Origin: a virus
Direction: 5' to 3' (one strand)
Virus record (IMG/VR): IMGVR_UViG_3300025597_000012
DNA: 64,000 nt
Within the stretch, counting starts at the first letter, position 1. Each line of letters begins with the position of its first letter. This document shows, in pieces, positions 47,178-61,474 of the stretch. A program made the position numbers and the translations under genes. The notes beneath the pieces were generated by a model. The model had not been told where the DNA came from. It ran no database searches and saw nothing but the letters and a program-made list of their open reading frames with translations.

Positions 47178-47538
47178 GTTTTTTATTTTTATCGTATGCT
47201 GTCCATTTTAACTCCATTTTATTATCTTTATTTGAAGCGTTAAATATTTCAATTCCACAATTTGAAGAAAGAGATGCCGTCTTTTTTACTATAGGACAGC
47301 CACACTGAATACAGTGTTCATCTTTTCTCATAGTTACATAATTGCCGGCAGCTACTGCATTCTTACTTAAAAAAGGACATCCTTCACAGATAGCTCTTCT
47401 TCTTACTATCTCTTTAACTTCATCTTCTTGTAGGTCTCCTGCTTCTAATTTAATATCATTAAGCCATCCTTCAAGTATTTTATCAGCATTAGTCAATGCT
47501 CTCGGTATCAATTTCAGGTATTCCAAAAGTGCGCTCAT
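47170..47538 (-). CDS. Cys-cluster (zinc-binding?) protein
   Basis: CEGCPF...CIQCGCP motifs. Confidence 0.35.
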   Translation of the reverse strand: MSALLEYLKLIPRALTNADKILEGWLNDIKLEAGDLQEDEVKEIVRRRAICEGCPFLSKNAVAAGNYVTMRKDEHCIQCGCPIVKKTASLSSNCGIEIFNASNKDNKMELKWTAYDKNKKHD

Positions 47539-47893
47539 CTTTTAATTTTTTCTGTTCTAATCTATAAATTGCTAAGTCGTTTCTTTTCTTTAATAACTTT
47601 CTAAGATTTTCATATTTATAATCTAAGATTAAATTTTTCTTTTTTTCTGTAAACTTAGGTGAATAATATATGTTTCTTATTTTAGCTATTTCATCTTTTA
47701 TTTCAAAATAAAGTTTTTTAGGACTTACACAAATAGTTCCAAAATTCTTTATATAGATAGCATCATAAACTACATTAGCCAGTTGTTTTTTAATTCCTTC
47801 TTTCCAATAAAAAGCATTTACTTTCTTAACTAGATTAACTGGTAGATTTAGTTCTTCGGCTGCCTGTTTATAATAATTATCGGGTGTCTTCAT
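47489..47893 (-). CDS. Hypothetical basic protein (134 aa)
   Basis: ORF. It overlaps the next gene by 50 nt, so one of the two boundaries is uncertain. Confidence 0.35.
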   Translation of the reverse strand: MKTPDNYYKQAAEELNLPVNLVKKVNAFYWKEGIKKQLANVVYDAIYIKNFGTICVSPKKLYFEIKDEIAKIRNIYYSPKFTEKKKNLILDYKYENLRKLLKKRNDLAIYRLEQKKLKDERTFGIPEIDTESID

Positions 47894-48234
47894 TAACTAT
47901 TATCAACTTTAATTAAAACTCCTATAGCTGCGTCAGATTGAAAATTAATTTTATCGTTTATATGATATTCTTTAAGAGATGTTGATTTTTTAAGCAAACC
48001 AACTCTTTTAAGTTTAGAAATTGTATTGTTTAAAGAATCTTCGCTTTTCAAAAGTTCACTTTTTAATATCAGTTGTCTTGTGCTCTCACTATCTTTATAA
48101 ACTAAAAAATAAGCTAATACGGTAAGTTCCGTATCTGAAAGTTTAATATCAGACAATAAACAAAAAATTGAAAGAACAACTTTTGCCTGTTCAATCTTTC
48201 CGTAGCTCTTTTTTTCAATCTTTATAAGTTGCAC
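47893..48234 (-). CDS. Hypothetical protein (113 aa, HTH-like?)
   Basis: First ORF after the promoter at 48254-48284. Confidence 0.35.
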   Translation of the reverse strand: MQLIKIEKKSYGKIEQAKVVLSIFCLLSDIKLSDTELTVLAYFLVYKDSESTRQLILKSELLKSEDSLNNTISKLKRVGLLKKSTSLKEYHINDKINFQSDAAIGVLIKVDNS

Positions 48235-48253
48235 AACTAATTGGTTTTGAGGA

Positions 48254-48284
48254 CAAAGATAAGTATTTTATTTGAAATAACAAA
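48254..48284 (-). promoter_or_regulatory. Bacteroidota-type promoter of the morphogenesis operon
   Basis: Minus strand reads TTTG-N19-TATCTTTG. Confidence 0.6.
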
Positions 48285-48322
48285 ATTTTATATAAGACTT
48301 TAACATTTTGGTAACAAACAGG

Positions 48323-48358
48323 AAAGGCCGACTTACAACTAGTTGTAAATCAGCCTTT
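48323..48358 (-). terminator. Long near-perfect hairpin closing tRNA array 1
   Basis: AAAGGCCGACTTACAACT/AGTTGTAAATCAGCCTTT palindrome. The T-tract is clear on the plus strand and weaker on the minus strand. Confidence 0.45.
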
Positions 48359-48408
48359 TAATTTAACCCTCCACCTTAGTCCTGTACCAGCGGGATTGGG
48401 GGAATACG

Positions 48409-48480
48409 CACGGGCTGTGGGCATCGAACCCATCTCCATGCAAGGTTTTGGAGACCTGCTGCTTCCTAAAGCTAGCCCGG
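48409..48480 (-). tRNA. tRNA-Trp(CCA), non-canonical
   Basis: Anticodon loop CTCCAAA and T-arm ATGGG-TTCGATG-CCCAC. Irregular features are a tiny D-loop (GCTT-TAGG-AAGC), a C1.U72 mismatch and an 8-nt variable region. The TGG codon in the upstream leader supports the call. Confidence 0.5.
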
Positions 48481-48485
48481 ATAAG

Positions 48486-48558
48486 TACACTCTAAAAGAT
48501 TCGAACTTTTATTTCTTGGTTCGTAGCCAAGTGTCCTCATCCATTGGACGAAGAGTGC
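48486..48558 (-). tRNA. tRNA-Arg(ACG)
   Basis: Cloverleaf with anticodon loop CTACGAA and T-arm AAAAG-TTCGAAT-CTTTT. Confidence 0.8.
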
Positions 48559-48563
48559 AAAAG

Positions 48564-48636
48564 TGTGAATGACCAGACTCGAACTGGTACTTAGTAGCTC
48601 CACAAACTACCGCTCTACCATTAAGCTACATCCACC
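48564..48636 (-). tRNA. tRNA-His(GUG) with encoded G-1
   Basis: Anticodon loop TTGTGGA, an extra 5' G before acceptor GTGGATG, and T-arm ACCAG-TTCGAGT-CTGGT. Confidence 0.8.
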
Positions 48637-48643
48637 ATATGAG

Positions 48644-48714
48644 ATGCCTCTAAAGGACTCGAACCTGTAACTCTTGACCCAAAATCAAGCGTGTTGCCAT
48701 TACACTAAGAGGCA
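48644..48714 (-). tRNA. tRNA-Gln(UUG)
   Basis: Acceptor TGCCTCT/AGAGGCA (U1:A72) and anticodon loop TTTTGGG. Confidence 0.8.
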
Positions 48715-48719
48715 AAAAG

Positions 48720-48791
48720 CGTGGAAGGTGGATTCCGAGACCACAACACCTTGCTCTTCAGGCAAGTGCTCTACCTTTGAGCTACATCCAC
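48720..48791 (-). tRNA. tRNA-Phe(GAA), unusual T-loop
   Basis: Anticodon loop CTGAAGA. The T-loop is 9 nt (TCTCGGAAT) and there is one acceptor mismatch. Confidence 0.6.
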
Positions 48792-48798
48792 ATAATTG

Positions 48799-48872
48799 AG
48801 CCTGAGAAGGGAATCGAACCCTCAACCGCTAGTTTACAAAACTAGTGCTCTACCGATTGAGCCACTGCAGGC
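48799..48872 (-). tRNA. tRNA-Thr(UGU), bulged acceptor stem
   Basis: Anticodon loop TTTGTAA. The acceptor GCCTG(C)AG/CTCAGGC needs a 1-nt bulge. Confidence 0.6.
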
Positions 48873-48876
48873 ATAG

Positions 48877-48948
48877 TCTAGTTGACAGGGTTCGAACCTG
48901 CCTAGTCTTGCTCCCAAAGCAAGTGCCTAACCAATCGGCCACAACTAG
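48877..48948 (-). tRNA. tRNA-Pro(UGG)
   Basis: Perfect acceptor CTAGTTG/CAACTAG and anticodon loop TTTGGGA. Confidence 0.85.
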
Positions 48949-48952
48949 AAAT

Positions 48953-48977
48953 AAAAAACCCCGCTTTATAGGCGGGG
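48953..48977 (-). terminator. Intrinsic terminator (attenuator) immediately 5' of tRNA array 1
   Basis: Minus strand reads CCCCGC-CTATAAA-GCGGGG followed by TTTTTT. It ends 4 nt before tRNA-Pro. Confidence 0.7.
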
Positions 48978-49003
48978 CTTTAAGTATAATAATTGAGTTT
49001 CAA

Positions 49004-49078
49004 TTAGTTACACGTAGTGCATCCGCCACCAGATATTGTGGGCGTAAACCAAAAGCGTGTATGTTGAAACTGTTTCAT
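49004..49078 (-). CDS. Leader peptide L1 (24 aa) MKQFQHTRFWFTPTISGGGCTTCN
   Basis: Hand-translated, and below the ORF-track size cutoff. Codons 3-14 (Q F Q H T R F W F T P T) use only the 7 amino acids whose tRNAs follow, and they use all 7. It lies between the promoter and the terminator. Confidence 0.6.
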   Translation of the reverse strand: MKQFQHTRFWFTPTISGGGCTTCN

Positions 49079-49139
49079 ATTTAAAAAAGACCAATTCTAA
49101 GCGCGCTGTTCTATAGGAAGCGGAACTGGTATATTGATG

Positions 49140-49171
49140 CAAACTTACGAAGAATTTTTCAATCCTCCAAA
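49140..49171 (-). promoter_or_regulatory. Bacteroidota-type promoter of leader L1 / tRNA array 1
   Basis: Minus strand reads TTTG-N20-TAAGTTTG. Confidence 0.65.
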
Positions 49172-49204
49172 TTTATTTTGTTAAAATAACTAAAAAGAAT
49201 TAAT

Positions 49205-49741
49205 TTAACTTCCTAACTCATTGTCTAACAGACGTAAAGCTATTTTATCTGTACCAAAGGCAGCTAATCTATCCATAAGATTTTGAGTCTTTTCATGCTC
49301 TTCTATTTGTTCTTGTAAATATTTCATACCTAAAGTATAGAGCATAAAATCTGCTTCTTTTAAAGCATTAGCTGTCAATTCTTTACATTGCTTAGTTATA
49401 TCAATTTCATGTTGATAAGACTGTTTAATTATATCCGGTAAACCTGCAAATGTTTGTTTAGGTGAGTCTAGTTTTGGAGTTTCAGGTTGAACACCCATAG
49501 CTAAGAGATACTCTCTAGACCATTCTGCGTGTTTTAGCTCTTCCTCTGAATATTTTCTCCAAAGCTTTGCTGAACCTAGATAACCATTATTATTTAACCA
49601 CAGACTCATGGCTAAATATAGACGAGAAGAAAGCTCCTCTTGTTGGATTCTATTATTTAAAAATTGAACACATTTATTAGATAATAGTTCATTTTTACCT
49701 GTAAGGGAAATAGAATCTGTAGTTTTAAAATTAAGTTCCAT
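49205..49741 (-). CDS. Ferritin-like iron-storage protein
   Basis: IQQEELSSRLYLAMSLW...GSAKLWRKYSEEELKHAEW...SYQHEIDIT...LQEQIEEHE reproduces the spacing of ferroxidase-centre E/H residues in bacterial Ftn (compared from memory with E. coli FtnA). Confidence 0.7.
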   Translation of the reverse strand: MELNFKTTDSISLTGKNELLSNKCVQFLNNRIQQEELSSRLYLAMSLWLNNNGYLGSAKLWRKYSEEELKHAEWSREYLLAMGVQPETPKLDSPKQTFAGLPDIIKQSYQHEIDITKQCKELTANALKEADFMLYTLGMKYLQEQIEEHEKTQNLMDRLAAFGTDKIALRLLDNELGS

Positions 49742-49754
49742 TAAAAATTTTTCA

Positions 49755-49786
49755 CAAATATAACACTTTTTTGTGAAATTACCAAA
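49755..49786 (-). promoter_or_regulatory. Bacteroidota-type promoter of the ferritin gene
   Basis: Minus strand reads TTTG-N20-TATATTTG, 13 nt before the ATG. Confidence 0.65.
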
Positions 49787-49790
49787 TTTG

Positions 49791-49875
49791 TGAGAGTGGC
49801 TGGAGTCGAACCAGCACCCTTGCGGGACTACAGTTTTACAGACTGCTCCACCTAACCGATAGGTAGCTCACTCTC
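49791..49875 (-). tRNA. tRNA-Tyr(GUA), class II
   Basis: Anticodon loop CTGTAAA, variable arm CCC-GCAA-GGG and perfect acceptor GAGAGTG/CACTCTC. Confidence 0.8.
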
Positions 49876-49881
49876 AAATAG

Positions 49882-49967
49882 CGGAAACGAAAGGACTCGA
49901 ACCTTCAACCCAAATTAACGAGTAACGGTTTAGCAAACCGCTGCAGTACCATTATGCTTACGCTTCC
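49882..49967 (-). tRNA. tRNA-Ser(GCU), class II
   Basis: Anticodon loop TTGCTAA, long variable arm and T-arm GAAGG-TTCGAGT-CCTTT. Confidence 0.7.
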
Positions 49968-49972
49968 AATAG

Positions 49973-50056
49973 CGGTAGAGACAGGAATCGAACCTGTACG
50001 GCTATTACACCTTCATGGTTTTCAAGACCAATAAGCCCTCTCATTTGCGCTCTACC
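49973..50056 (-). tRNA. tRNA-Ser(UGA), class II
   Basis: Acceptor GGTAGAG/CTCTACC, anticodon loop CTTGAAA and long variable arm. The D-stem is weak. Confidence 0.6.
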
Positions 50057-50062
50057 AATATG

Positions 50063-50148
50063 TACTCCTGACTGGACTCGAACCAGCACGTCCATTTCTG
50101 GACAAGGGATTTTAAGTCCCTCGTGTCTACCAATTCCACCACAGGAGC
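50063..50148 (-). tRNA. tRNA-Leu(UAA), class II
   Basis: D-arm GTGGAATTGGTAGACAC, anticodon loop CTTAAAA and variable arm GTCC-AGAAAT-GGAC. Confidence 0.8.
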
Positions 50149-50153
50149 ATATG

Positions 50154-50237
50154 TAGCCTCGGAGAGACTCGAACTCTCACGTCCTTACGGACACTAGCTC
50201 CTAAGGCTAGCGCGTCTACCAATTCCGCCACAAGGCC
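50154..50237 (-). tRNA. tRNA-Leu(UAG), class II
   Basis: D-arm GCGGAATTGGTAGACGC, anticodon loop CTTAGGA and variable arm GTCC-GTAA-GGAC. Confidence 0.8.
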
Positions 50238-50240
50238 AAT

Positions 50241-50268
50241 AAAAAACCCCGACTATTGCTCGCCGGGG
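50241..50268 (-). terminator. Intrinsic terminator (attenuator) immediately 5' of tRNA array 2
   Basis: Minus strand reads CCCCGGC-GAGCAATA-GTCGGGG followed by TTTTTT. It ends 3 nt before tRNA-Leu. Confidence 0.7.
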
Positions 50269-50300
50269 TTTGAGGTTAAAGACCGTAGTCTAAAACAAGT

Positions 50301-50369
50301 TTACATAGTATTCCCAGCTCGATTTTTACTCGATAAACTGAGGGAATAATATGTGTTGTTTGTCTTCAT
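50301..50369 (-). CDS. Leader peptide L2 (22 aa) MKTNNTYYSLSLSSKNRAGNTM
   Basis: Hand-translated. Codons 7-14 are TAT TAT TCC CTC AGT TTA TCG AGT (Y Y S L S L S S). They use only Tyr/Ser/Leu and cover both Ser boxes and both Leu boxes, matching the downstream Leu, Leu, Ser, Ser, Tyr tRNAs. Confidence 0.6.
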   Translation of the reverse strand: MKTNNTYYSLSLSSKNRAGNTM

Positions 50370-50386
50370 TGCGTTTGAAAGGAATA

Positions 50387-50418
50387 CAAATATACGAAAA
50401 ATATTTGAAACTACCAAA
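50387..50418 (-). promoter_or_regulatory. Bacteroidota-type promoter of leader L2 / tRNA array 2
   Basis: Minus strand reads TTTG-N20-TATATTTG. Confidence 0.65.
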
Positions 50419-50424
50419 TTTTTA

Positions 50425-52368
50425 TTAATAAATATTTATTGCTAGTTTTTCTTTAAATAACTGCTTTTGGTAAAAGCGTTGTTTTAAAAATGAATATCTA
50501 TCGTAAGATTTGTTAATATCATATAATAAATTAGCTAATAAAGAGTTACCAACAGAAGCTATAAAAGTATTTATTTTTTGAAATAACGCTCTGAAATACA
50601 AGATATTAGTTTCTCTTGTAGGAAGGTGAATCTTTACTGATTTAGGTACTCTTACTGGCGGTGCTTCATTTACTGTTACCTGAACAGTATCTGTTCCTAC
50701 TGCACCATTGTTATCAGTAACTGTTAATGTAAATGTATATATTCCGGCTGCTAAACCGCTAACTATAGTAGTTGGTGAAGTAGGTGTTTCTATTAAATGT
50801 GCTGTAGGCCCACTTGTTTTTGTCCAATTATAAGAAGAAATAGTGCCATCTGTATCAGTCCCGCTACCATTTAAAGTTGCACTATTAGCAGGAAGAGTTA
50901 TAATTTTATCTTCTCCTGCATTTGCAACTGGGGCTATATTTTGTGCAGCAATTACAGTAATTATTACATTAGAACTGCCTGTTGCACCGTTATTATCAGT
51001 AACTGTAAGTCTAAAAGTATATATACCTGTAGATAAAGCACTTACAACCGTTGATGCGGAATTAGGTGATTGTATAGTAGCATTTGTAGGGCCACTAACT
51101 TGAGTCCAAGCATATGAAGAAATAGTCCCATCACTATCCGAACCGGTTCCGTTTAAAGTCACAGAACTTGCTGGTGCTTGTATAGATTGATTATTTCCTG
51201 CATTTGCAGTGGGTGGGGTATTTCCAACACAATTTGTTGTATATACTATTCCCGGTGTAACATCTATATCCGATGGAGAATTATCTGCTAATTTTGTATT
51301 TCCACAAATTATATTATCTGTGTTATATCTATTTGGATAATTTCCTCCATTATCATCAACACTAATATCAAAAGTTTGAAGAGAACCGCGAGAACCTGTT
51401 CTATTATTCTTGATAATAAATGTAGTATTCTCTACAGGAATTGTATTTCTTGGAGAAACAATAATAGCCCAAGGCCATACAAGACTATGGTCTAAACCAT
51501 CTCTTGTAGCTGAAGCAGGAAGAAATCCACTATGATTAATAGTATTATTTTCAATTCTTACATAAGTTCCTCCAAGTGAAGCAATACCCCAAACATAAGT
51601 ATAATCAATATTATTATCATGAATATACACTTTTGAATAAAGTCCTATATTAATACCGTTACCTTGACCATCACTAATTTCAAGACCTGCATTAGTAATT
51701 GTATTATTATAAATTTCACTTATACCAAGTTCAGCATCAGAAAGTTGAATAGCGGCACGACCTGTTTTATCAAATATGTTATGGTGAATTTTAAAATTAC
51801 CAAGGCGTGTCGGTTTATATTGTCCTTGAGTTGCAGGCACTCCATTACAAACAATAGGATTTCTATCTAACCAAAGAGCATTAGGGTCTGTAGAACCACA
51901 GTACATACCTTCGTATGTAATATTTCTTACTCTACAGTGATGAACTTCAATATTATTTATATACCAGTTAGGATATTGTAATGATGGGTCACAACTAGCT
52001 TCATTTTTAATCCAAAAACCAAAGGCTCCACCATCTATATCTATGTTAGAAACTTCTATATCAGAAACTCTTCCATGTAAAGAACATCCTGTTGAAACAA
52101 AACCATAGGTATCTGCTGAACCAGTTCCTAAAATTTTAATATGTGTACAATGTTCAATATCAAATGATACTTGAACTTGTCCGCCTTCATTTATAATGGT
52201 GATAGGCTGGTCAGCAGTACCATGTACTTCTGCCATATAAAAATAACTTCTAGGATTATCTGAAGCTCTAAGTACAATAGTATCTCCCGGATTAAAAATA
52301 CCCGGACTATTGATACCATTAAACATGTAACCGTTGTCTCCCTGTTTACCGGGATAATGTATTGCCAT
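50425..52368 (-). CDS. Right-handed beta-helix (polysaccharide lyase/depolymerase-like) protein with two PKD/Ig-like repeats
   Basis: Beta-helix repeat signatures NNTITNAG, IHDNNIDY and IENNTINHSG. Two repeats follow of the form ANAG.(D/N)..I..P...(V/A)TLNG(T/S)G(S/T)D(S/T)DGTISSY.WT.(V/T)SGPT. Confidence 0.55.
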   Translation of the reverse strand: MAIHYPGKQGDNGYMFNGINSPGIFNPGDTIVLRASDNPRSYFYMAEVHGTADQPITIINEGGQVQVSFDIEHCTHIKILGTGSADTYGFVSTGCSLHGRVSDIEVSNIDIDGGAFGFWIKNEASCDPSLQYPNWYINNIEVHHCRVRNITYEGMYCGSTDPNALWLDRNPIVCNGVPATQGQYKPTRLGNFKIHHNIFDKTGRAAIQLSDAELGISEIYNNTITNAGLEISDGQGNGINIGLYSKVYIHDNNIDYTYVWGIASLGGTYVRIENNTINHSGFLPASATRDGLDHSLVWPWAIIVSPRNTIPVENTTFIIKNNRTGSRGSLQTFDISVDDNGGNYPNRYNTDNIICGNTKLADNSPSDIDVTPGIVYTTNCVGNTPPTANAGNNQSIQAPASSVTLNGTGSDSDGTISSYAWTQVSGPTNATIQSPNSASTVVSALSTGIYTFRLTVTDNNGATGSSNVIITVIAAQNIAPVANAGEDKIITLPANSATLNGSGTDTDGTISSYNWTKTSGPTAHLIETPTSPTTIVSGLAAGIYTFTLTVTDNNGAVGTDTVQVTVNEAPPVRVPKSVKIHLPTRETNILYFRALFQKINTFIASVGNSLLANLLYDINKSYDRYSFLKQRFYQKQLFKEKLAINIY

Positions 52369-52378
52369 TTATTTTAAT

Positions 52379-52744
52379 TTAGGATATTACTTTAGTTGTT
52401 GAATCACTATAGGTTATAGTGACTATTTTTGTATCAAAATCTACTACTACATCATCTATTACTCTAGTAACAGTTACTTTTACACTATCTGAACTAGTTG
52501 CTCCTTTGTTATCAGTAGCAGTTAATTTAAACGTATAACTACCTAAAAGAAGTCCTGTAATTGTAGGAGTAAGGGTATTTTGTCCTGTAATTGTACAAGT
52601 ACCTCCGCTAGTTTTAGTCCAAACTACTGAAGAAATAGTACCATCAGGGTCTGTGGCAGTTCCAGTTAGAACTATTTGATTATTAGGAAGTTGTACTATT
52701 TTATCAACTCCTGCATTTACTATAGGTACTTTATTTATTGCCAT
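52379..52744 (-). CDS. PKD/Ig-like domain protein (start trimmed to MAINKVP)
   Basis: The same repeat type is present (VNAGVDKIVQLPNNQIVLTGTATDPDGTISSVVWTKTSG). The track start at 52780 lies inside the promoter, and the next ATG is 52744. Confidence 0.5.
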   Translation of the reverse strand: MAINKVPIVNAGVDKIVQLPNNQIVLTGTATDPDGTISSVVWTKTSGGTCTITGQNTLTPTITGLLLGSYTFKLTATDNKGATSSDSVKVTVTRVIDDVVVDFDTKIVTITYSDSTTKVIS

Positions 52745-52749
52745 ATTTA

Positions 52750-52781
52750 CAAATATACAAAAAAAAAACCATATTGCCAAA
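52750..52781 (-). promoter_or_regulatory. Bacteroidota-type promoter
   Basis: Minus strand reads TTTG-N20-TATATTTG, 5 nt before ATG 52744. Confidence 0.6.
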
Positions 52782-52784
52782 TTT

Positions 52785-53243
52785 CTAGTTTCGGCAAATA
52801 TGGTCTGCTGCTTTTGAAGCTATCATCTCGTCTGGTTTTACTAAAACATTATATCCTAGTGATTTAACCCAACCGGTAATAGCTGGAACAAGATTTGTTG
52901 ATTTTGTTATTTTTGCATTATTATAATCGAACTCAAGGGCTTCAAATTGGACTGGAACTTCTGCATTTATAGTTTGAGCTGTATCTATTGTTATTTCAGC
53001 TTCCTTCCATAAACGGCTAAAAGTATCCCTTATCCTAGGGATTCTTTGCTTTCTATATACAAAGTGTGCTCCCCTAAGTCCATATCTGAACACAACCGCC
53101 GTAGCGTAAACTGTATTCGACCCGTAATTCTGTGAGTCAGTAGCTATGTAAATCTTTAGGTTTGGATTCTGCTGTATTTGTTCTACAACGTGTTCCACTA
53201 TGTTTACTAACTTTCCTTCCTCTGTCCGAAAGTATTTGTCCAT
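52785..53243 (-). CDS. YkuK/DUF458-like RNase-H-fold protein
   Basis: The pattern LKIYIATDSQNYGSNTVYATAVVFRYGLRGAHFVYRKQRIPRIRDTFSRLWKEAEITI matches, from memory, the ..GTDSQ....tiv.H..g.Ga.f.Y.k signature of this family. Confidence 0.5.
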   Translation of the reverse strand: MDKYFRTEEGKLVNIVEHVVEQIQQNPNLKIYIATDSQNYGSNTVYATAVVFRYGLRGAHFVYRKQRIPRIRDTFSRLWKEAEITIDTAQTINAEVPVQFEALEFDYNNAKITKSTNLVPAITGWVKSLGYNVLVKPDEMIASKAADHICRN

Positions 53244-53255
53244 TGGTTTTATTTG

Positions 53256-53331
53256 TGGAATCTATGGGCATCGAACCCATCTGGTATTCTGCTTGCAAGG
53301 CAGACGACCACTCCAAGCAGTCCCAGACCCC
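53256..53331 (-). tRNA. tRNA-Ala(UGC)
   Basis: Acceptor GGGGTCT/AGATTCC includes the G3.U70 pair. Anticodon loop CTTGCAA and T-arm ATGGG-TTCGATG-CCCAT. Confidence 0.7.
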
Positions 53332-53456
53332 AAATGCGGGGGACTACGGCCCCCTAAAGATGTCTTATTAGGTTTCATCTCTGTCCCGGATTACGCTAGC
53401 GAGCTACCGGGGAAACCACGCTACATACTTTCGTAGAGGTTATGCGGGTTACACTG
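53332..53456 (-). other. Structured 125-nt spacer inside the tRNA array (not foldable as a tRNA)
   Basis: Nested stems GGTTTC/GAAACC and CCCGG/CCGGG, hairpin GGGGG-CCGTAGT-CCCCC and hairpin TAC-GAAA-GTA. No T-loop. Confidence 0.35.
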
Positions 53457-53529
53457 TGCTCACGCTAAGACTCGAACTTAGACTCTCTCGCGTATCAGGC
53501 GAGAGCTTTAACCATTAAGCTACATGAGC
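53457..53529 (-). tRNA. tRNA-Ile(GAU)
   Basis: Anticodon loop CTGATAC and T-arm CTAAG-TTCGAGT-CTTAG. Confidence 0.8.
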
Positions 53530-53581
53530 TGGAGAGGGACAGGTTATTTATACCTTCAAAGGACTCCCTCAGACCTCTTCG

Positions 53582-53654
53582 TACTCTCAAAGGGATTCGA
53601 ACCCTAAATTGCCTGTGTATAAGACAGGAGTTTTCACCGTTAAACTATGAGAGC
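53582..53654 (-). tRNA. tRNA-Ile(UAU)
   Basis: Anticodon loop CTTATAC and T-arm TAGGG-TTCGAAT-CCCTT. AUA codons are used three times in leader L3. Confidence 0.7.
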
Positions 53655-53801
53655 AAGTAAAGAGAGTGGGATTAGATTTCCGGGGATTGACCCAACCTGT
53701 GTCCTAATCTTATTTATCCTTGTACGGAGGCACACTCTCTTTGAATGGTCGGGCGGATTGCTTCTTTCAGCCTCAGACATTAATTACAATGTTGCCCGAT
53801 G
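53655..53801 (-). other. Structured 147-nt spacer inside the tRNA array (tRNA-like stems but no canonical cloverleaf)
   Basis: Acceptor-like pairs TCGGGC/GCCCGA and GAGAGTG/CACTCTC. Internal hairpins ACATT-GTAATTA-AATGT and GATTAG...CTAATC. No TTCGA T-loop. Confidence 0.3.
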
Positions 53802-53874
53802 CGGTCTATCACGGATTCGAACCGAGACTACCGCATAGACAGTGCGGCGTGTTCAACCATTACACTAATAGACC
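53802..53874 (-). tRNA. tRNA-Asp(GUC)
   Basis: Perfect acceptor GGTCTAT/ATAGACC and anticodon loop CTGTCTA. Confidence 0.8.
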
Positions 53875-54504
53875 ATAAACTTTATCCATGTTTGTTTTTC
53901 CGTTGCCATGAATAATCAACGGCTGAGTACCAGTTTTTTTATTAATCAGGATTCCATGTCTGTACTCAAAGTCATCTTCTGATTCAAAAGCTACAGATTG
54001 AAATAAATCACAGTTGGTATCCAACTTCATGTTATATTTATCTCTGTGCTTCAGATAAATTTCTGCTAAGTTAACTTGGTCATTATCACTATGTTTTATT
54101 GGATAATCCTCAAACATCTTGATAAATAAATCTACATTAACAAAGCATGCACCACCATTCAGATATTTCCAATCACTTTTTACTTTAGGATATTTTTCTG
54201 CCCAATCTGAATAAGGCCAGCATCCTTTTTCTGCGTTAAATATAATAGAATCAATATCATCTATTCTATCTATTGCTTGTTGCATTGTACCCAAAACTAT
54301 GATGTCATAAGTGTCTAGGATAAACAAGTGAGTACAATCTGTTTGCTTTGCATAGTTATAAGCGTTAACCATTTTACTACCATAAGCTTTATAGGTATCA
54401 GTCAGAATATCATAATTCCAATCAAACCTATCAAGTGAATCTTTAAACTGTTTAAACCCTTCGTGGTTTAAGTTGGTTGCTGTTCCTATTACGTTTACTT
54501 TCAT
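53860..54504 (-). CDS. GT-A glycosyltransferase resembling the collagen (LH3/PLOD-type) glycosyltransferase domain
   Basis: LFILDTYDIIV (DxD-like), FNAEKGCWPY, KYLNGGACFVNV and PLIIHGNGKT. From memory, these parallel VDSYDVI / FSAE.FCWP / FLNSGGFIG / VHGNGPTK of LH3. The 3' end overlaps tRNA-Asp by 15 nt. Confidence 0.5.
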   Translation of the reverse strand: MKVNVIGTATNLNHEGFKQFKDSLDRFDWNYDILTDTYKAYGSKMVNAYNYAKQTDCTHLFILDTYDIIVLGTMQQAIDRIDDIDSIIFNAEKGCWPYSDWAEKYPKVKSDWKYLNGGACFVNVDLFIKMFEDYPIKHSDNDQVNLAEIYLKHRDKYNMKLDTNCDLFQSVAFESEDDFEYRHGILINKKTGTQPLIIHGNGKTNMDKVYGLLV

Positions 54505-55289
54505 TTGAATGGATTATAATAAATAGATATTGTATTATTCTTATAACCCTGAACGGTTTCGTGATAGGTTTTCCATTGTTCAGAAGCATGGTTTTCTTTC
54601 CATTTCTGGTATGGTGTTCCTCCTGTATCTATGTGTTCTATCTCTATATGAGGTAAGAATACACTTTTAAACCCTGATAGTCTTGCTCTTATAGACATAA
54701 GGACATCATCAAATCCGTATAAACTAGGTTGGTATAAATAACCTATTTTATCAAGTAAAGCTGCTGAGTGCATAACACAAGTACCCATCACATGATTTAC
54801 TTGTTCTACTACTACCCATTTTTCACCGGGCTGGTGTTGAAGCATTAGTAATTCTGACTTATAAAAATCAGTTCTATTTGGTGATTCCCAACAATCTTTT
54901 CTTTTCAAGCCCACCTGTCCAATAGTATTGTCACGGCGAAAAACTTCTTCCATCTGTTCTATCCAACCTGATTGATGTATTACTACATCATCATCAATTT
55001 TAACACAATTCTCTCCGGGTTTTCTTTCTTTCCATGCTAAATTAATAGCTTCAGCAGTTCCTAGATTTTTATCATTCCAGATAACTTTATCAATTACAGA
55101 AAAAATTCCATTTGATTCAGAAAAATCTTCTATTATTTCTTTTGTTCTAGTAGTATAGGAATTTACAGAAAGTATTAATCTGTGTGAATCCCAGTCAACT
55201 GTTTTTTCTAAAGAATCTAATGTTTTATAAAGATATGTATCTTTATCATTATCTTCAGTACAATAAACAGCCATTGCTATTAAAGCCAT
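54501..55289 (-). CDS. Family-2-like glycosyltransferase (start trimmed to MALIAMAVYC)
   Basis: GT2-like N-terminal beta-strand, NLGTAEAINLAW and a KIDDDVVI DxD motif. The track start at 55331 lies inside tRNA-Glu. Confidence 0.55.
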   Translation of the reverse strand: MALIAMAVYCTEDNDKDTYLYKTLDSLEKTVDWDSHRLILSVNSYTTRTKEIIEDFSESNGIFSVIDKVIWNDKNLGTAEAINLAWKERKPGENCVKIDDDVVIHQSGWIEQMEEVFRRDNTIGQVGLKRKDCWESPNRTDFYKSELLMLQHQPGEKWVVVEQVNHVMGTCVMHSAALLDKIGYLYQPSLYGFDDVLMSIRARLSGFKSVFLPHIEIEHIDTGGTPYQKWKENHASEQWKTYHETVQGYKNNTISIYYNPFK

Positions 55290-55304
55290 TGGTTTTATTT
55301 TTAG

Positions 55305-55379
55305 TATTCTGGAAGGGACTCGAACCCTCACTGACCACAGTGAAAGTGTGGTGACTTATTCCAATTTGTCAACCAGAAC
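55305..55379 (-). tRNA. tRNA-Glu(UUC)
   Basis: Anticodon loop CTTTCAC and T-arm GAGGG-TTCGAGT-CCCTT. Confidence 0.8.
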
Positions 55380-55380
55380 A

Positions 55381-55452
55381 TTTGCAGTTTAGTCGGCCTC
55401 TACTATACCTAGGCCGCAGAGAGTATAGACTCGTATTCCATCTACTGCAAAA
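55381..55452 (-). other. 72-nt three-way-junction element between tRNA-Gly and tRNA-Glu
   Basis: Closing stem TTTGCAG(tt)TAG/CTACTGCAAA and hairpins CGGCC-13nt-GGCCG and GAGT-ATAG-ACTC. Its size is tRNA-like, but there is no T-loop and no anticodon arm. Confidence 0.3.
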
Positions 55453-55460
55453 AGGAATTG

Positions 55461-55531
55461 AGCGAGTAGTGGGAGTCAAACCCACGCCTTAACCTTGGAA
55501 GGGTCATATGCTATCGTAACACTTCACTCGC
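55461..55531 (-). tRNA. tRNA-Gly(UCC)
   Basis: Anticodon loop CTTCCAA and T-arm GTGGG-TTTGACT-CCCAC. The 5' 21 nt overlap the HNH ORF's 3' end. Confidence 0.7.
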
Positions 55532-55942
55532 TAATGCTTCTTTATAATGTAAATCTCTATGACAATTAGCACATAAAACTTTACATTTATTTATTTCTTC
55601 TTGTAATAGTTTTTTAGAACATTTTGTTACAAGTTGTGATACTTCTGAATCTTTTTCATTTGGATTTTTATGATGAAAATCTAAAACCCAATATCTACTA
55701 TCTCCACATGATTCACAAGATAAAGTACTTTTGTATTCAGAAAACCATTTTCTAAAGTCTTGTTTATACTTTACTGCTTTTTGAATATACTTTTCTTTAT
55801 TTTTTTCGTAATGCTTTTTTCTATATTCTTTTTGACAAGCTTTACAATTACTTTGATAAAGTAAATTTTTTCTATCTTTTCTTGTAGCAAACTCCGTTAA
55901 AGGAAGTTCTTTTTTACAAATTGTACATTTTTTAATTTTCAT
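55511..55942 (-). CDS. HNH endonuclease (start trimmed to MKIKKCT)
   Basis: CxxC pairs plus DFHHKNP...CANCHRDLH. The track start at 55978 lies inside the promoter. Confidence 0.65.
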   Translation of the reverse strand: MKIKKCTICKKELPLTEFATRKDRKNLLYQSNCKACQKEYRKKHYEKNKEKYIQKAVKYKQDFRKWFSEYKSTLSCESCGDSRYWVLDFHHKNPNEKDSEVSQLVTKCSKKLLQEEINKCKVLCANCHRDLHYKEALASEVLR

Positions 55943-55947
55943 ATATG

Positions 55948-55979
55948 TAAATATACGAAAAATAATTGATACTTCCAAA
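55948..55979 (-). promoter_or_regulatory. Bacteroidota-type promoter (imperfect -7 box TATATTTA)
   Basis: Minus strand reads TTTG-N20-TATATTTA, 5 nt before ATG 55942. Confidence 0.45.
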
Positions 55980-56001
55980 TTTTATTTTATTTGGAAGGAT
56001 G

Positions 56002-56073
56002 TTGCGTAGGCTGGATTCGAACCAGCGACCTAATGGTTATGAGCCATCCGAGCTACCTCTGCTCTACCACGCA
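56002..56073 (-). tRNA. tRNA-Met(CAU) (elongator or Ile2-type; not initiator-like)
   Basis: Anticodon loop CTCATAA and T-arm GCTGG-TTCGAAT-CCAGC. There is no GGG/CCC anticodon stem. Confidence 0.75.
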
Positions 56074-56183
56074 ATTTATCCCCGGACTAGTGCGCCTTCC
56101 TCCGGGGGTGTTATTGCTTATCTTCTTCGTCAATAACTAAACCCTTTTGGGTCGGCCAACGGATACTATCCGCAGGGGGGGGG
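56074..56183 (-). other. Hairpin-dense 110-nt spacer upstream of tRNA-Met with a C9 (plus-strand G9) homopolymer
   Basis: Stems CGGA/TCCG, ACCC/GGGT, TTATTG/CAATAA and CCCCGGA/TCCGGGG. The G9 run is at about 56175-56183. Confidence 0.3.
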
Positions 56184-56396
56184 CTATCTTAATATCTTTA
56201 AACCGCTGGTAGCAGTCCAAAGAACATAATTGTTTTTCTTTACTTCACCCATTACTATTTTCTTTTCATAATTAGTAACTCGTGAAGTAGGAAGGGTAAC
56301 CAACCAGTGAATGAATTTTTCTCGTTCACCTTTGTATTTTTTAATACTGGCTATCCTACGGTATTCCTTACCGTCTTTTATGACTGTATCATTCAT
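56184..56396 (-). CDS. Hypothetical protein (70 aa)
   Basis: ORF starting 2 nt after the tRNA-Asn 3' end. Confidence 0.35.
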   Translation of the reverse strand: MNDTVIKDGKEYRRIASIKKYKGEREKFIHWLVTLPTSRVTNYEKKIVMGEVKKNNYVLWTATSGLKILR

Positions 56397-56397
56397 G

Positions 56398-56472
56398 CGG
56401 GACAGGATGGACTCGAACCAACGACCTTAGAGTTAACAGCTCTCTGCTCTCGACCAACTGAGCTACAGTCCC
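56398..56472 (-). tRNA. tRNA-Asn(GUU)
   Basis: Anticodon loop CTGTTAA. One mismatch each in the acceptor and T stems. Confidence 0.65.
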
Positions 56473-56513
56473 CTTTTGTATTTTTAACTCCACGCAGAAT
56501 ACTAACTGACCTG

Positions 56514-56587
56514 AAGCCCTGAAAGGAGTCGAACCTTCATCTAATAGTTTAGAAAACTATGACATTCATCCATTATGCTACAGGGCC
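56514..56587 (-). tRNA. tRNA-Arg(UCU)
   Basis: Anticodon loop TTTCTAA and T-arm GAAGG-TTCGACT-CCTTT. Confidence 0.8.
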
Positions 56588-56590
56588 ATG

Positions 56591-56665
56591 TACATCTGGA
56601 ATGAGTCGAACATTCGGTCTCCGTCTTGTAAGGGCGGTGCTTTCAACCAACTAAGCTACAGATGC
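56591..56665 (-). tRNA. tRNA-Val(UAC)
   Basis: Anticodon loop CTTACAA and T-arm GAATG-TTCGACT-CATTC. One C.A mismatch in the anticodon stem. Confidence 0.7.
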
Positions 56666-56720
56666 AAATATAATACTTTATTTAAAGCTTACCAAATAAA
56701 GTATGTTAAAGTTTTGTTAG

Positions 56721-56791
56721 AGGACAAGATAGGAATCGAACCTACGCTGGAGGTGTTGCAGACCTCTGCCTTACCGCTTGGCTACTTGTCC
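56721..56791 (-). tRNA. tRNA-Cys(GCA)
   Basis: Perfect acceptor GGACAAG/CTTGTCC and anticodon loop CTGCAAC. Confidence 0.8.
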
Positions 56792-56794
56792 ATG

Positions 56795-56868
56795 TGCTAC
56801 CGAAGGGACTCGAACCCATAACCTCCTGATTAAAAGTCAGAAGCTCTACACTATTGAGCTACGATAGC
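56795..56868 (-). tRNA. tRNA-Lys(UUU)
   Basis: Anticodon loop CTTTTAA and D-arm GCTC-AATAGTGTA-GAGC. Confidence 0.75.
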
Positions 56869-56872
56869 AAAT

Positions 56873-56897
56873 AAAAAACCCTCCTTTAAGGGGAGGG
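56873..56897 (-). terminator. Intrinsic terminator (attenuator) immediately 5' of tRNA-Lys
   Basis: Minus strand reads CCCTCC-CCTTAAA-GGAGGG followed by TTTTTT. It ends 4 nt before tRNA-Lys. Confidence 0.7.
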
Positions 56898-56920
56898 CTT
56901 CAGTAATATTCGTGGTTAAA

Positions 56921-57013
56921 TTAAACCAGTTCTATATCAGACATAGCTCTCCTGATGATGGTATCTCTACCCACCTCTTTACAAATCATATTTATGGCTA
57001 TGTTCTTTCTCAT
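56921..57013 (-). CDS. Leader peptide L3 (30 aa) MRKNIAINMICKEVGRDTIIRRAMSDIELV
   Basis: Hand-translated. The first 17 residues use exactly the 11 amino acids (K C V R N M G E D I A) of the 12 tRNAs between here and the next leader. All Arg codons are AGA/AGG, and Ile is encoded by ATA three times plus ATT/ATC. Confidence 0.55.
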   Translation of the reverse strand: MRKNIAINMICKEVGRDTIIRRAMSDIELV

Positions 57014-57030
57014 TTTAAATTTAAGTTATG

Positions 57031-57062
57031 CAAACTTACGACAAATATTTGGATTTTCCAAA
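57031..57062 (-). promoter_or_regulatory. Bacteroidota-type promoter of leader L3
   Basis: Minus strand reads TTTG-N20-TAAGTTTG. Confidence 0.65.
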
Positions 57063-57080
57063 TTTATTAATAGAAAATAA

Positions 57081-57281
57081 TTAAATCTTTTGTGAATATC
57101 TTTTCCAGCCTGTAACTTTATTGATAGCGTCTACTAGTTTATTGTAATCTTTACGCCAGTTTTTATAAGCTTTGGAGCGTTTATCTGATGGCTCCTTAGC
57201 GGCCTGTTCAGCTAAAAGTTCATCAGCATGACCTACGTTTACAATAATTATTTCTTTATCGTCAATCATTACTCTTTCCAT
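57081..57281 (-). CDS. Hypothetical protein (66 aa)
   Basis: ORF coupled to its upstream neighbour. Confidence 0.35.
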   Translation of the reverse strand: MERVMIDDKEIIIVNVGHADELLAEQAAKEPSDKRSKAYKNWRKDYNKLVDAINKVTGWKRYSQKI

Positions 57282-57607
57282 TACTTTATTCTTTTAATAA
57301 GTTCACCACTAAGCTCCTCATAAATTCTTGAGAATTTTTCATAACCCATTCTTATTAAGAACATTCCGTAGTTTAAAAATATCTTTACGTGCTCATCATC
57401 TTCTTTACCATAAGCTACAATATCATTTAAATTGACTACTAATGGTTTATATGTAGTTTCTGAATCATCTTCATCTTCTTCATCTTCTTCATATTTATCA
57501 CCTTTAATCAGACGTTTAGCTATTCTTGCAGCTTTGTCTTCTTCTGATTCATTGTTCTTGTCTTTAAAGACTCTTACTTTTACAAAAAATTCTACGCGTT
57601 GTGCCAT
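57281..57607 (-). CDS. Hypothetical acidic protein (108 aa)
   Basis: ORF with an EDEEDEDD tract. Confidence 0.35.
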   Translation of the reverse strand: MAQRVEFFVKVRVFKDKNNESEEDKAARIAKRLIKGDKYEEDEEDEDDSETTYKPLVVNLNDIVAYGKEDDEHVKIFLNYGMFLIRMGYEKFSRIYEELSGELIKRIK

Positions 57608-57620
57608 GTTTTTTATTTTG

Positions 57621-57736
57621 CAGTATGGGAAGGATTCGAACCTTCATAGTTTAATGTATCGTTCACTAGGAATACTTAATACTTATAAACTGCCACCGAG
57701 ACTAGGTGGTGCGTCTGCCAGTTCCGCCACCGTACT
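57621..57736 (-). tRNA. Aberrant 116-nt tRNA-like gene (identity unassigned)
   Basis: Acceptor AGTACGG/CCATACT (one mismatch), a Leu-type D-arm GCGGAACTGGCAGACGC and a canonical T-arm GAAGG-TTCGAAT-CCTTC. The anticodon loop TAGTCTC has A at position 33, and about 46 nt are inserted in the variable region. Its own promoter ends 7 nt upstream. Confidence 0.4.
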
Positions 57737-57743
57737 ATAAGTA

Positions 57744-57774
57744 CAAAGATAGTGAAAAATTTTGAGATTACAAA
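57744..57774 (-). promoter_or_regulatory. Bacteroidota-type promoter of the tRNA-like gene
   Basis: Minus strand reads TTTG-N19-TATCTTTG. Confidence 0.6.
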
Positions 57775-57776
57775 AT

Positions 57777-58544
57777 TTATAATCGACTTCCTAGAAAAAT
57801 TAATCCTCCAAATTCCAGAGCTTTTAACAAAATATTAGGTTTTTTAACAGGAGAATAGATTACTGAATTCTGTCCCATTACGTTAATAAATTGTGAACTA
57901 TGCAATACCTGAACCTGAAATTTAGGTTTAGAGAAAGGATGGAAAAATCCTCTTTTAAGTTTTACTACTCTAATATATTGAGTATCAGCTATTGAGATAG
58001 TTCCAAGATGAAATCCTGTCTTTGTGATTACTCCTGAAAGTCTTATACCTTCCTGATATTTATCTTCAACGCTATCTAAAGTTACAGCTTTAGGAACCTT
58101 AATCATATTGTTCAGGACGTAGTTATATAAAGAGGCTGTGTCTTTATATTTACTTAATTCCTTTCTAACACTGTCTATGGTAGCTGTGTCCTTATAAGGA
58201 ATGAAGGTATTATCTATATGAGCTGAGAGTTGTGCTTCGTAGTAGAATGTGACATCCTTAATTTTCTTCTCATACTTTTTAGTCAGATTAAACTTCTGGT
58301 CAGTAAGGTCTTTAATCTCAGCTTGATTATCTGTGATAATAGAAGTCTGAGTATAAACGGTTTGTTTTAACTCATTTTTAATACTGTCTAATTTTTGGTT
58401 AGCTAAGGTCAAAGAATCCAATGCCACGTTCTGACGAGCTACTTGGGATTCGTAATTACACTTGTTAAGAAAAAGACAAAGAAATAATCCAGCTATTACT
58501 GAGAAATAAATGTAGTCTTTGAAATTAATTTTAGGGAATGTCAT
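57777..58544 (-). CDS. Membrane-anchored / lipoprotein-like protein (255 aa)
   Basis: N-terminal hydrophobic segment ending ...LFLNKC. Confidence 0.4.
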   Translation of the reverse strand: MTFPKINFKDYIYFSVIAGLFLCLFLNKCNYESQVARQNVALDSLTLANQKLDSIKNELKQTVYTQTSIITDNQAEIKDLTDQKFNLTKKYEKKIKDVTFYYEAQLSAHIDNTFIPYKDTATIDSVRKELSKYKDTASLYNYVLNNMIKVPKAVTLDSVEDKYQEGIRLSGVITKTGFHLGTISIADTQYIRVVKLKRGFFHPFSKPKFQVQVLHSSQFINVMGQNSVIYSPVKKPNILLKALEFGGLIFLGSRL

Positions 58545-58558
58545 GTTTTTGATTTGTT

Positions 58559-58591
58559 CAAATATAAGGCATTTGGATACCCAAATCCAAA
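58559..58591 (-). promoter_or_regulatory. Bacteroidota-type promoter
   Basis: Minus strand reads TTTG-N21-TATATTTG, 14 nt before ATG 58544. Confidence 0.55.
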
Positions 58592-58604
58592 TCTTTTAAG
58601 TTAA

Positions 58605-59090: not shown

Positions 59091-59271
59091 AGAAGATACC
59101 GTCTTTACTTTTCCCGCAGCGGCACAGGGCTATTGTTCCGTTTTTTGAAGTATTGAAGATTCCTTGGATACCTTGATTAGGTTGTTTATCCTTAGGGTGA
59201 AGTTCAATTTCGTAGTCGGTGCATGCTATAAGAGCAGGGCCACCTTCGAGCAGTTTAATCTTTAATGCCAT
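59053..59271 (-). CDS. CDGSH-type iron-sulfur domain protein
   Basis: CRCGKSKDGIFCDGSH fits C-X-C-X2-S-X3-(P)-X-C-D-G-S-H, with Ile at the usual Pro position. Confidence 0.65.
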   Translation of the reverse strand: MALKIKLLEGGPALIACTDYEIELHPKDKQPNQGIQGIFNTSKNGTIALCRCGKSKDGIFCDGSHKTKDNGQ

Positions 59272-59295
59272 AATATATTGGTTTTTTTAGGGGTT

Positions 59296-59878: not shown

Positions 59879-59883
59879 AACCA

Positions 59884-61435: not shown

Positions 61436-61474
61436 ATTAGGATTATCGTGCCTCTTATGGCATAATGATACAAT

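Follow-up and report, generated by a model that had tools for sequence, protein, structure and literature searches.

Why should each of three phage tRNA arrays be preceded by a tiny open reading frame (ORF) whose codons name the amino acids of the tRNAs behind it? This question was raised by a 64,000-nt stretch of viral DNA (IMG/VR virus record IMGVR_UViG_3300025597_000012; hereafter the window), in which three such units, arrays and leaders alike, lie on the minus strand at about positions 48,409–57,062. Each array is headed by a Bacteroidota-type promoter, an ORF of 22–30 codons, and a GC hairpin followed by GGG-T6-ATT (Table 1). A preliminary description had argued that the mini-ORFs are functionally linked to the tRNA arrays, for which support was found, but gave no mechanism. 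The anatomy of the units fits ribosome-mediated transcription attenuation, and the three units are likely to be leader-peptide attenuators that gate the phage tRNA arrays.

Three tRNA arrays and their leaders

ARAGORN at its default setting called 21 tRNAs in the window. When relaxed ARAGORN (including aragorn -ps85) and Rfam were added, the total rose to 24 (21 strong and three weaker), which together span 20 of the 20 amino acids. All 24 identities assigned to the three arrays in the preliminary description were reproduced by ARAGORN/Rfam. The leaders of the window had anticipated the Trp, Ser and Gly tRNAs, which were absent from the default ARAGORN output. The Trp(cca) gene was 90% identical over 50 nt to the annotated tRNA-Trp of Vibrio phage Ceto, and a Trp tRNA was found at the same array position in relatives.

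Table 1. Coordinates of the elements of the three tRNA units in the window
Feature	Coordinates	Strand	Remarks
Promoter of unit 1	49140..49172	-	Motif match
Leader ORF L1	49004..49078	-	24 codons, MKQFQHTRFWFTPTISGGGCTTCN; run = codons 3–14 (49037–49072)
L1 antiterminator 5' strand, CUGGUGGCG	49024..49032	-	Pairs with terminator-arm GCCCCGCC
L1 intrinsic terminator	48949..48981	-	With GGGG-T6-ATTT; abuts tRNA-Pro
Array 1	48408..48948	-	Pro(tgg), Thr(tgt), Phe(gaa), Gln(ttg), His(gtg), Arg(acg), Trp(cca)
tRNA Trp(cca)	48408–48480	-	ARAGORN only at -ps85
Array-1 closing hairpin	48323..48358	-	Strong, 16-bp, terminator-like
Promoter of unit 2	50387..50419	-	Motif match
Leader ORF L2	50301..50369	-	22 codons, MKTNNTYYSLSLSSKNRAGNTM; run = codons 7–14 (50328–50351)
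L2 antiterminator 5' strand, AGCUGGGA	50312..50319	-	Pairs with terminator-arm CCCCGGC; alternatively with run codons (region 1)
L2 intrinsic terminator	50238..50271	-	With GGGG-T6-ATT; abuts tRNA-Leu
Array 2	49790..50237	-	Leu(tag), Leu(taa), Ser(tga), Ser(gct), Tyr(gta)
tRNA Ser(tga)	49974–50056	-	Rfam only, 35.6 bits
Promoter of unit 3	57031..57063	-	Bacteroidota type, ATTTGG-N19-TAagTTTG; motif match
Leader ORF L3	56921..57013	-	30 codons + stop, MRKNIAINMICKEVGRDTIIRRAMSDIELV; regulatory run = codons 2–17 (56963–57010)
L3 antiterminator 5' strand (region 2), AGGAGAGCUA	56944..56953	-	Pairs with terminator 5' arm GAAGCCCUCC
L3 intrinsic terminator	56869..56901	-	10-bp hairpin + GGG-T6-ATT; 2 nt short of tRNA-Lys
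Array 3	53255..56868	-	Lys(ttt), Cys(gca), Val(tac), Arg(tct), Asn(gtt), Met(cat), Gly(tcc), Glu(ttc), Asp(gtc), Ile(tat), Ile(gat), Ala(tgc)
tRNA Gly(tcc)	55460–55531	-	Relaxed ARAGORN threshold; Rfam 50 bits
70-aa ORF in array 3	56187–56396	-	Begins at tRNA-Asn 3' end
CxxC-rich, HNH-like ORF in array 3	55511–55951	-	No Pfam match; 3' end overlaps tRNA-Gly
GT2 glycosyltransferase ORF in array 3	54501–55289	-	
PLOD-type glycosyltransferase ORF in array 3	53860–54504	-	
RNaseH-like PF04308 protein	52785–53243	-	After tRNA-Ala; same placement in Lbo-JY46

The leader peptides, with their codon runs set off by hyphens, are MK-QFQHTRFWFTPT-ISGGGCTTCN (L1), MKTNNT-YYSLSLSS-KNRAGNTM (L2) and M-RKNIAINMICKEVGRD-TIIRRAMSDIELV (L3). 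These in-frame runs of 12, 8 and 16 codons contain every amino acid of the downstream array and no others. The partition of the tRNA complement among the leaders, as first claimed, was therefore true of the runs; it was not true of the entire peptides, whose flanking residues are non-cognate. The L3 run holds R(AGA), K, N, I, A, M, C, E, V, G and D, the complete set of 11 for array 3. The L2 run (TAT TAT TCC CTC AGT TTA TCG AGT) corresponds at the codon-box level to Tyr, Ser(tga), Leu(tag), Ser(gct) and Leu(taa) of array 2, and an array tRNA of the same box exists for the Leu codons CTC and TTA and the Ser codons TCC, TCG and AGT. The Arg codon is CGC in L1, the leader of the acg tRNA, and AGA in L3, the leader of the tct tRNA. 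The split of Arg by isoacceptor between units 1 and 3, noticed earlier, was thereby confirmed.

Chance occurrence was estimated from about 14,500 segments of the same length in proteins encoded by the phage itself. Among these, uninterrupted in-set runs were no longer than 6 for the L1 set and 5 for the L2 set, compared with 12 and 8 in the leaders. The L3 run of 16 was reached by 32 of 14,399 segments. The score of L3 in its reading frame was 21, against 4 and 3 in the other frames.

A search for the promoter motif ATTTGG-N14-20-TANNTTTG, i.e. with a TAnnTTTG -7 box, gave eight matches in the window where 0.18 were expected (44-fold enrichment); every one of them lies on the minus strand. Three of the eight stand directly before the three leaders, and the leader ORFs start 17–60 nt past the TAnnTTTG boxes. 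The motif agrees with the -33/-7 promoter consensus of Bacteroidota.

The terminators consist of 10-bp GC hairpins and T6, and GGG-T6-ATT stops about 2–4 nt ahead of the first tRNA of each unit. This shared design had been pointed out before. The corresponding plus-strand string, AATAAAAAACCC, had only three occurrences in the window, one at each terminator (0.01 expected). L1 was partially recognized by the Rfam Trp_leader model (RF00513; 33.9 bits, E = 7e-4, 48951–49037, minus strand); the score lies below the gathering score of 41, and L1 is not a member of RF00513.

Array 2 is made up exclusively of tRNAs with long variable arms (Leu, Ser and Tyr). The same grouping with its own leader was seen in L008, L011, L015, L016 and L020 among the relatives, and the other tRNAs shift between arrays. 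A tRNA-Ile with the anticodon UAU (53581–53654, minus strand), present also in L011 and L012, reads ATA without lysidine; ATA occurs twice in the L3 run.

Leaders and arrays in related phages

If the mini-ORFs are linked to the arrays, the order of promoter, mini-ORF, terminator and tRNA should recur in relatives, as had been anticipated. It was found in many of them, including the GenBank phages Lbo-JY46 and Cellulophaga phi17:2 and about a dozen IMG/VR contigs. An identity-blind pipeline was used for the comparison. It accepted terminators no more than 18 nt from a tRNA, and any ORF of 15–45 codons ending upstream was a candidate leader. Each candidate was scored by the local segment that best matched the tRNAs lying before the next leader, and the maximum over the candidate ORFs was taken for real and permuted pairings alike.

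The summed score of 26 unique leaders was 272, and the permuted pairings gave 100.9 ± 15.9 (maximum 174). None of 100,000 permutations reached the observed score (z = 10.8), so that leader composition indeed predicted the identity of the downstream tRNAs. At the codon-box level, the summed score was 259, compared with 93.9 ± 14.9 for the permuted pairings. The amino-acid classes of the arrays were represented within the first 20 codons of the cognate leader in 148 of 149 cases, and in no case (0) in a non-cognate leader only. All Arg codons in the runs (17/17) fitted the box of the Arg tRNA of the array. In-frame scores ranged from 4 to 23, and those of the other two frames from 1 to 5, with one exception. 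Five unrelated phages that carry tRNAs, DAC19 (a Bacteroides phage), csAssE-Sib, Vibrio Ceto, Bacillus Nate and Microbacterium A3Wally, had no comparable leaders, and their best scores were 0–4.

The relatives partition their tRNAs otherwise than the window does, and the leader codons follow. The tRNAs that changed array, with the codons moving to the leader of that array, were Arg(acg), Asp, Asn, Thr, Trp, Phe, Tyr, Leu, Glu and Cys. Phage phi17:2 has three such leaders. QRLHLQELEQP stands before Pro, Glu, Gln, His, Leu, Leu and Arg(acg). TKTGITVIDKTKGARA, already annotated as the hypothetical protein gp077, stands before Ala, Lys, Ile, Gly, Met, Asp, Thr, Val, Arg(tct) and Met. NYCTYNNSNWSFSY precedes Tyr, Ser, Ser, Asn, Trp, Phe and a Cys-like tRNA. 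In L002, MIQNIHS-YRPQQLLQ... precedes Pro, Gln, His, Arg(acg), Leu and Tyr, and MK-RNNWFNNAAAFTTTDCG-... precedes Ala, Gly, Asp, Asn, Trp, Thr, Arg(tct), Phe and Cys. The longest list was that of L040, in which 23 consecutive in-set codons (MMNNWFNIIDTAFATRNCGKVGI) name each of the 13 amino acids served by an array of 14 tRNAs.

The Arg(acg) gene of L015 and L016 has been relocated to the Lys/Gly/Glu array (array 3), and the leader of this array contains both AGA and CGC (VIIAGRGAERIVK). The leader of the Pro array (leader 1) in the same two relatives has lost Arg, and has gained Asn and Asp along with the Asn and Asp tRNAs. The correspondence between leaders and tRNAs thus held in the relatives and covaried with the changed partitions. 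Between homologous leaders, composition was kept and residue order was scrambled, which argued against a conserved function of the peptides.

Across the leaders, 92 of the 282 run codons are Watson–Crick complements of an array anticodon and 176 need wobble. The run codons are mostly the wobble-read member of a pair (TTT, CAT, AAT, TAT, GAT). This may reflect AT-rich codon usage, or may tune the sensitivity of pausing; wobble reading could make pauses more sensitive.

In two relatives, a tRNA-Glu has a promoter of its own and a Glu-rich mini-ORF (L002, 5535–5603, MKVDSHIQEQEIEGEELNALIV; L040, about 2585–2640, MKTNTLIEDKTEAEEIYAP...), which runs into the 5' part of the tRNA gene without an obvious terminator. 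This may be a different, translation-coupled control of a single tRNA.

A predicted switch before the first tRNA

When the full leaders were folded at equilibrium, the terminator was always retained, whether a ribosome footprint was masked or not. The switch must therefore be kinetic, as in the trp leader, in which the strong terminator is likewise kept in equilibrium folds. Since equilibrium folding says little on a kinetic switch, truncated folds were used instead, in which the RNA was cut before the 3' arm of the terminator and masked up to the leading edge of the ribosome (A site + 14 nt).

With these truncated folds, all three leaders of the window formed an antiterminator that pairs 6–7 of the 10 nt of the terminator 5' arm (-19.9, -14.9 and -14.5 kcal/mol for L1, L2 and L3). 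The antiterminator persisted with the A site in the run. Melting began at the last run codon (14, 14 and 17, respectively), and the structure was lost one to two codons further on. In L1, the fold containing it was intact for A sites at codons 2–13 and lost by codon 16. In L3, it was intact at codons 2–16, melting from codon 17 and lost by codon 19.

The same geometry was found in the relatives. The duplex that the terminator arm forms with the post-run leader was far more stable in 25 leaders than in shuffled sequences (mean z = -3.2, Fisher p = 2e-23), and its two strands covaried (CUGGGCU/AGCCCAG, GGCUCAGG/CCUGAGC, GGCAGGGGG/CCCCCUGC). Region 2, the 5' strand of the antiterminator, starts immediately past the codon run. 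It lies inside the ORF or no more than 12 nt past its stop codon in 26 of 26 leaders, i.e. beneath a ribosome that has arrived at the stop codon. The terminator hairpin starts 12–38 nt (median 26) past the stop codon, also in all 26, and the T-run ends 0–9 nt from tRNA +1. An anti-antiterminator (region 1:2) was seen in L1, L2 and some relatives, whereas L3 and the majority of the other leaders lack it (mean z = -0.67). A strict four-region model as in trp was dropped, as the region 1:2 pairing was not significant across leaders.

The anatomy of the units, the frame-dependent and covarying correspondence between codons and tRNAs, and the existence, placement and covariation of the antiterminator are direct observations. 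Region 1:2 pairing aside, the units have every sequence-level feature of leader-peptide attenuators that was examined here. These are a promoter-proximal short ORF, codons matched to the product, an intrinsic terminator before the first tRNA and, in silico, a mutually exclusive antiterminator that is masked by a ribosome completing the ORF, and not by one paused in the run.

The proposed course of events is as follows. RNA polymerase would begin at the Bacteroidota-type promoter and transcribe the short ORF. An undelayed ribosome would cross region 2, in the 3' part of the ORF, and park at the stop codon. With region 2 covered, the 5' arm of the terminator, 12–38 nt beyond, would be free to form the GC hairpin, and together with the U6 tract this would stop transcription a few nucleotides before the first tRNA. 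If an aminoacyl-tRNA were scarce, the ribosome would pause on any of the run codons, with its leading edge upstream of region 2. The exposed region 2 would then capture the emerging terminator arm, no terminator would form, and the polymerase would enter the array.

The run holds one to several codons for each amino acid of the downstream tRNAs. Because it lists every one of them, the leader would act as an OR gate over 3–13 amino-acid classes, for arrays of up to 14 tRNA genes. Newly made phage tRNAs would relieve the pause and shut the array off by negative feedback, the outcome being tRNA synthesis driven by demand.

Several points weigh against this model. Translation of the ORFs, switching between termination and readthrough, and tRNA rather than amino-acid supply as the signal are functional aspects that we infer. 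The full-leader equilibrium fold always keeps the terminator, and the switch has to be kinetic. There is no general region 1:2, and many leaders would read through (default ON) if untranslated, unlike those of trp and his. Region 1:2 pairing is not obligatory in the leader-peptide attenuator class. Only 92/282 run codons are Watson–Crick matches, CCC with UGG needs four-way wobble, and the signal could partly report host tRNAs.

Array 3 extends over 3.6 kb and contains ORFs and at least one leaderless internal promoter. The latter (56665–56697, minus strand) is a full motif match between tRNA-Cys and tRNA-Val that ends at tRNA-Val +1, with neither leader nor terminator. The tRNAs of this array are probably not controlled by the attenuator alone. 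Val, Arg(tct), Asn and the later array-3 tRNAs may be transcribed independently of L3 as well; part of the array is predicted, probably, to have additional constitutive expression.

Two relatives did not fit fully. Leader 2 of Lbo-JY46 retains Tyr and AGT codons, and no Tyr or Ser(gct) tRNA was found in this phage. In L007, a leader and terminator are kept before a truncated array. In the latter (6230–6460), the leader MNTFLRPSLSLYSQHLY is followed by the 5' part of a tRNA-Pro fused to an apparent tRNA-Phe 3' end, suggestive of a recent deletion by which the leader was orphaned. Both misfits can be explained by decay.

Three other explanations were weighed. In the first, which we consider unlikely, the same elements exist without a termination switch, and leader translation acts on 5' processing or stability of the precursor (access of RNase P or RNase E), or on Rho-dependent termination. 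The terminator hairpin, 0–9 nt from tRNA +1, would be part of the RNase P substrate, and the Glu-rich mini-ORFs of L002 and L040 enter their tRNA-Glu without an obvious terminator, both in favor of this explanation. On the other hand, a canonical GC hairpin with a T5-6 tract was present in 26/26 leaders, and all leaders have a competing helix that sequesters the 5' arm of this hairpin and lies under a ribosome translating through. Such a geometry is without obvious use if only processing is involved.

A sensor independent of translation is still less probable, and indeed rather remote. Here, as in T-boxes, run triplets would bind the anticodons of (uncharged) tRNAs and stabilize the antiterminator. 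The codons are by definition complementary to anticodons, and the element stands ahead of genes of the translation apparatus, as T-boxes do. However, no match to the T-box (RF00230) or any other riboswitch was obtained at E <= 1 (Rfam, 47500–58000). The triplets are contiguous in one frame that begins with ATG (one GTG) soon after the promoter and ends at a stop codon, the other frames score at background, and 15/26 leaders start with MK. Most run codons need wobble, moreover, which is weak for pairing of triplets without a ribosome.

Coincidence or post-hoc selection, i.e. ordinary or spurious small ORFs matching by chance, could be entertained, since the runs had been picked by eye and the L3 set makes up 59% of the residues in phage proteins, so that long in-set runs are not very rare (the 32/14,399 above), but it was rejected as next to impossible on the identity-blind permutation (0/100,000 over 26 leaders), the coverage within genomes (148/149), leaders that track partitions varying between genomes, and the negative-control phages (scores 0–4).

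With the attenuator model preferred, a further reading may be offered tentatively. The arrangement might be a multiplexed inducible counter-defence, in which a full 20-amino-acid tRNA set stays mostly silent and only the array with the depleted species is switched on, through pausing of ribosomes on the leader that names its tRNAs. Triggers could be, e.g., host anticodon nucleases, tRNA-cleaving abortive-infection systems, or losses upon host shut-off. If true, tRNA genes would here be seen for the first time to sense and repair deficits of the pool to which they contribute, and no earlier attenuator would have had a leader that serves its operon as a table of contents.

The phage, its host and known attenuators

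The window encodes a terminase, a portal and a major head protein. The nearest terminases in GenBank were those of Leptolyngbya phage Lbo-JY46 (49% identity) and Cellulophaga phages phi17:2 and phi4:1 (31%); crAss-like phages were more distant relatives by terminase. IMG/VR relatives were at 30–63% identity. At the DNA level, no close relatives were found among GenBank phages, only tRNA-sized matches. A terminase scan of genome contigs gave two matches, in a fragment of a Bacteroidota metagenome-assembled genome (MAG) and in a probably mis-binned Lachnospiraceae MAG contig, which are weak evidence on the host.

The recorded host of Lbo-JY46 (L008, PP438436) is cyanobacterial, and its closest relatives infect Flavobacteriia. 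Its leaders have promoters of the type TTTG / TAnnTTTG, typical of Bacteroidota, at 1780–1825, 5350–5390 and 6080–6118. The host recorded for it may be worth re-examining.

In the last 6 kb of the window (58000–64000), the G+C content rises from about 0.32 to 0.44, the GC skew flips sign, and plus-strand ORFs appear (e.g. 62764–63351), which suggests a module boundary. A single ORF of 3959 aa (1979–13858, minus strand) lies downstream of the structural genes. Three GC-rich spacers of 110–150 nt separate tRNAs in array 3 (53655–53800, 53332–53455 and 56074–56185, minus strand). No Rfam family matched the array-3 spacers, and their folding relative to shuffled sequences was modest (z +0.1 to -2.4; -1.1 to -2.4 for the three GC-rich ones). 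The latter could be decayed tRNAs, processing signals or small RNAs.

Both the regulation of phage tRNA genes and the reason for carrying them are debated. The main proposals are that they match codon usage, replace a host pool in decay, or help to evade defences that target tRNAs. The tRNA clusters of T4, T5-like phages and KVP40 are thought to offset codon-usage differences, or loss or cleavage of host tRNAs. If the attenuator model is true, at least one phage lineage makes its tRNAs on demand. Classical attenuation would be extended to a regulated product that is an RNA of the translation machinery, with up to 13 amino acids per leader, and the units would offer a compact natural sensor design of one switch per chosen codon set. 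Leader composition can predict the content of an array, and can expose decayed arrays or unannotated tRNAs. A cultured test system exists in Cellulophaga baltica with phi17:2 or phi4:1.

No description of leader-peptide or leader-ORF control of tRNA genes was found in open-access papers and bioRxiv, which is not proof of absence. Four kinds of known leaders bear comparison.

T-box riboswitches sense the state of a specific tRNA and operate a terminator/antiterminator switch before translation-related genes, as is proposed for the present units. They bind uncharged tRNA without translation, through a specifier loop and T-box motifs, whereas the present leaders are frame-dependent and have neither these motifs nor an Rfam match to the T-box.

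The pheST attenuator of E. coli is a leader-peptide control of a gene of the translation apparatus, in which charged tRNA is sensed via Phe codons. It is chromosomal, is concerned with one amino acid and controls a synthetase. Here, the product is the tRNA itself, and the feedback would therefore close on tRNA abundance.

The Bacteroid-trp motif (RF01692) has been listed among candidate cis-regulatory leaders of Bacteroidetes (Weinberg et al. 2010, PMC2864571). It differs from the present leaders in being upstream of trp biosynthesis genes, for a single amino acid, and not known from phages, and it had no Rfam match in the window. Interpreted as a Trp-codon attenuator, the motif suggests that leader-peptide control may be in use in the phylum.

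The closest parallel is with the enterobacterial attenuators trpL, hisL, leuL, thrL, ilvGMEDA and ilvBN. These share with the present units a promoter-proximal short ORF with regulatory codons, an intrinsic terminator, and a mutually exclusive antiterminator (predicted in the present units), the 5' strand of which is hidden by a ribosome at the stop codon; a pause at a hungry codon leads to readthrough in these attenuators, as it would here. The thr and ilv leaders are multivalent for two or three amino acids.

The enterobacterial systems control biosynthetic enzymes, whereas the targets here are tRNA genes. The leaders described here list 3–13 amino-acid classes, usually with one to three codons each rather than in a homopolymeric run. 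Their codon set, unlike that of the enterobacterial leaders, is defined by the downstream genes and co-evolves with them. The region 1:2 anti-antiterminator is often missing, unlike in trp and his, and the setting is a phage of a Bacteroidota-type host. The main differences from classical attenuation are the tRNA targets, the multivalency for 3–13 amino acids that co-evolves with the operon, and the phage/Bacteroidota setting.

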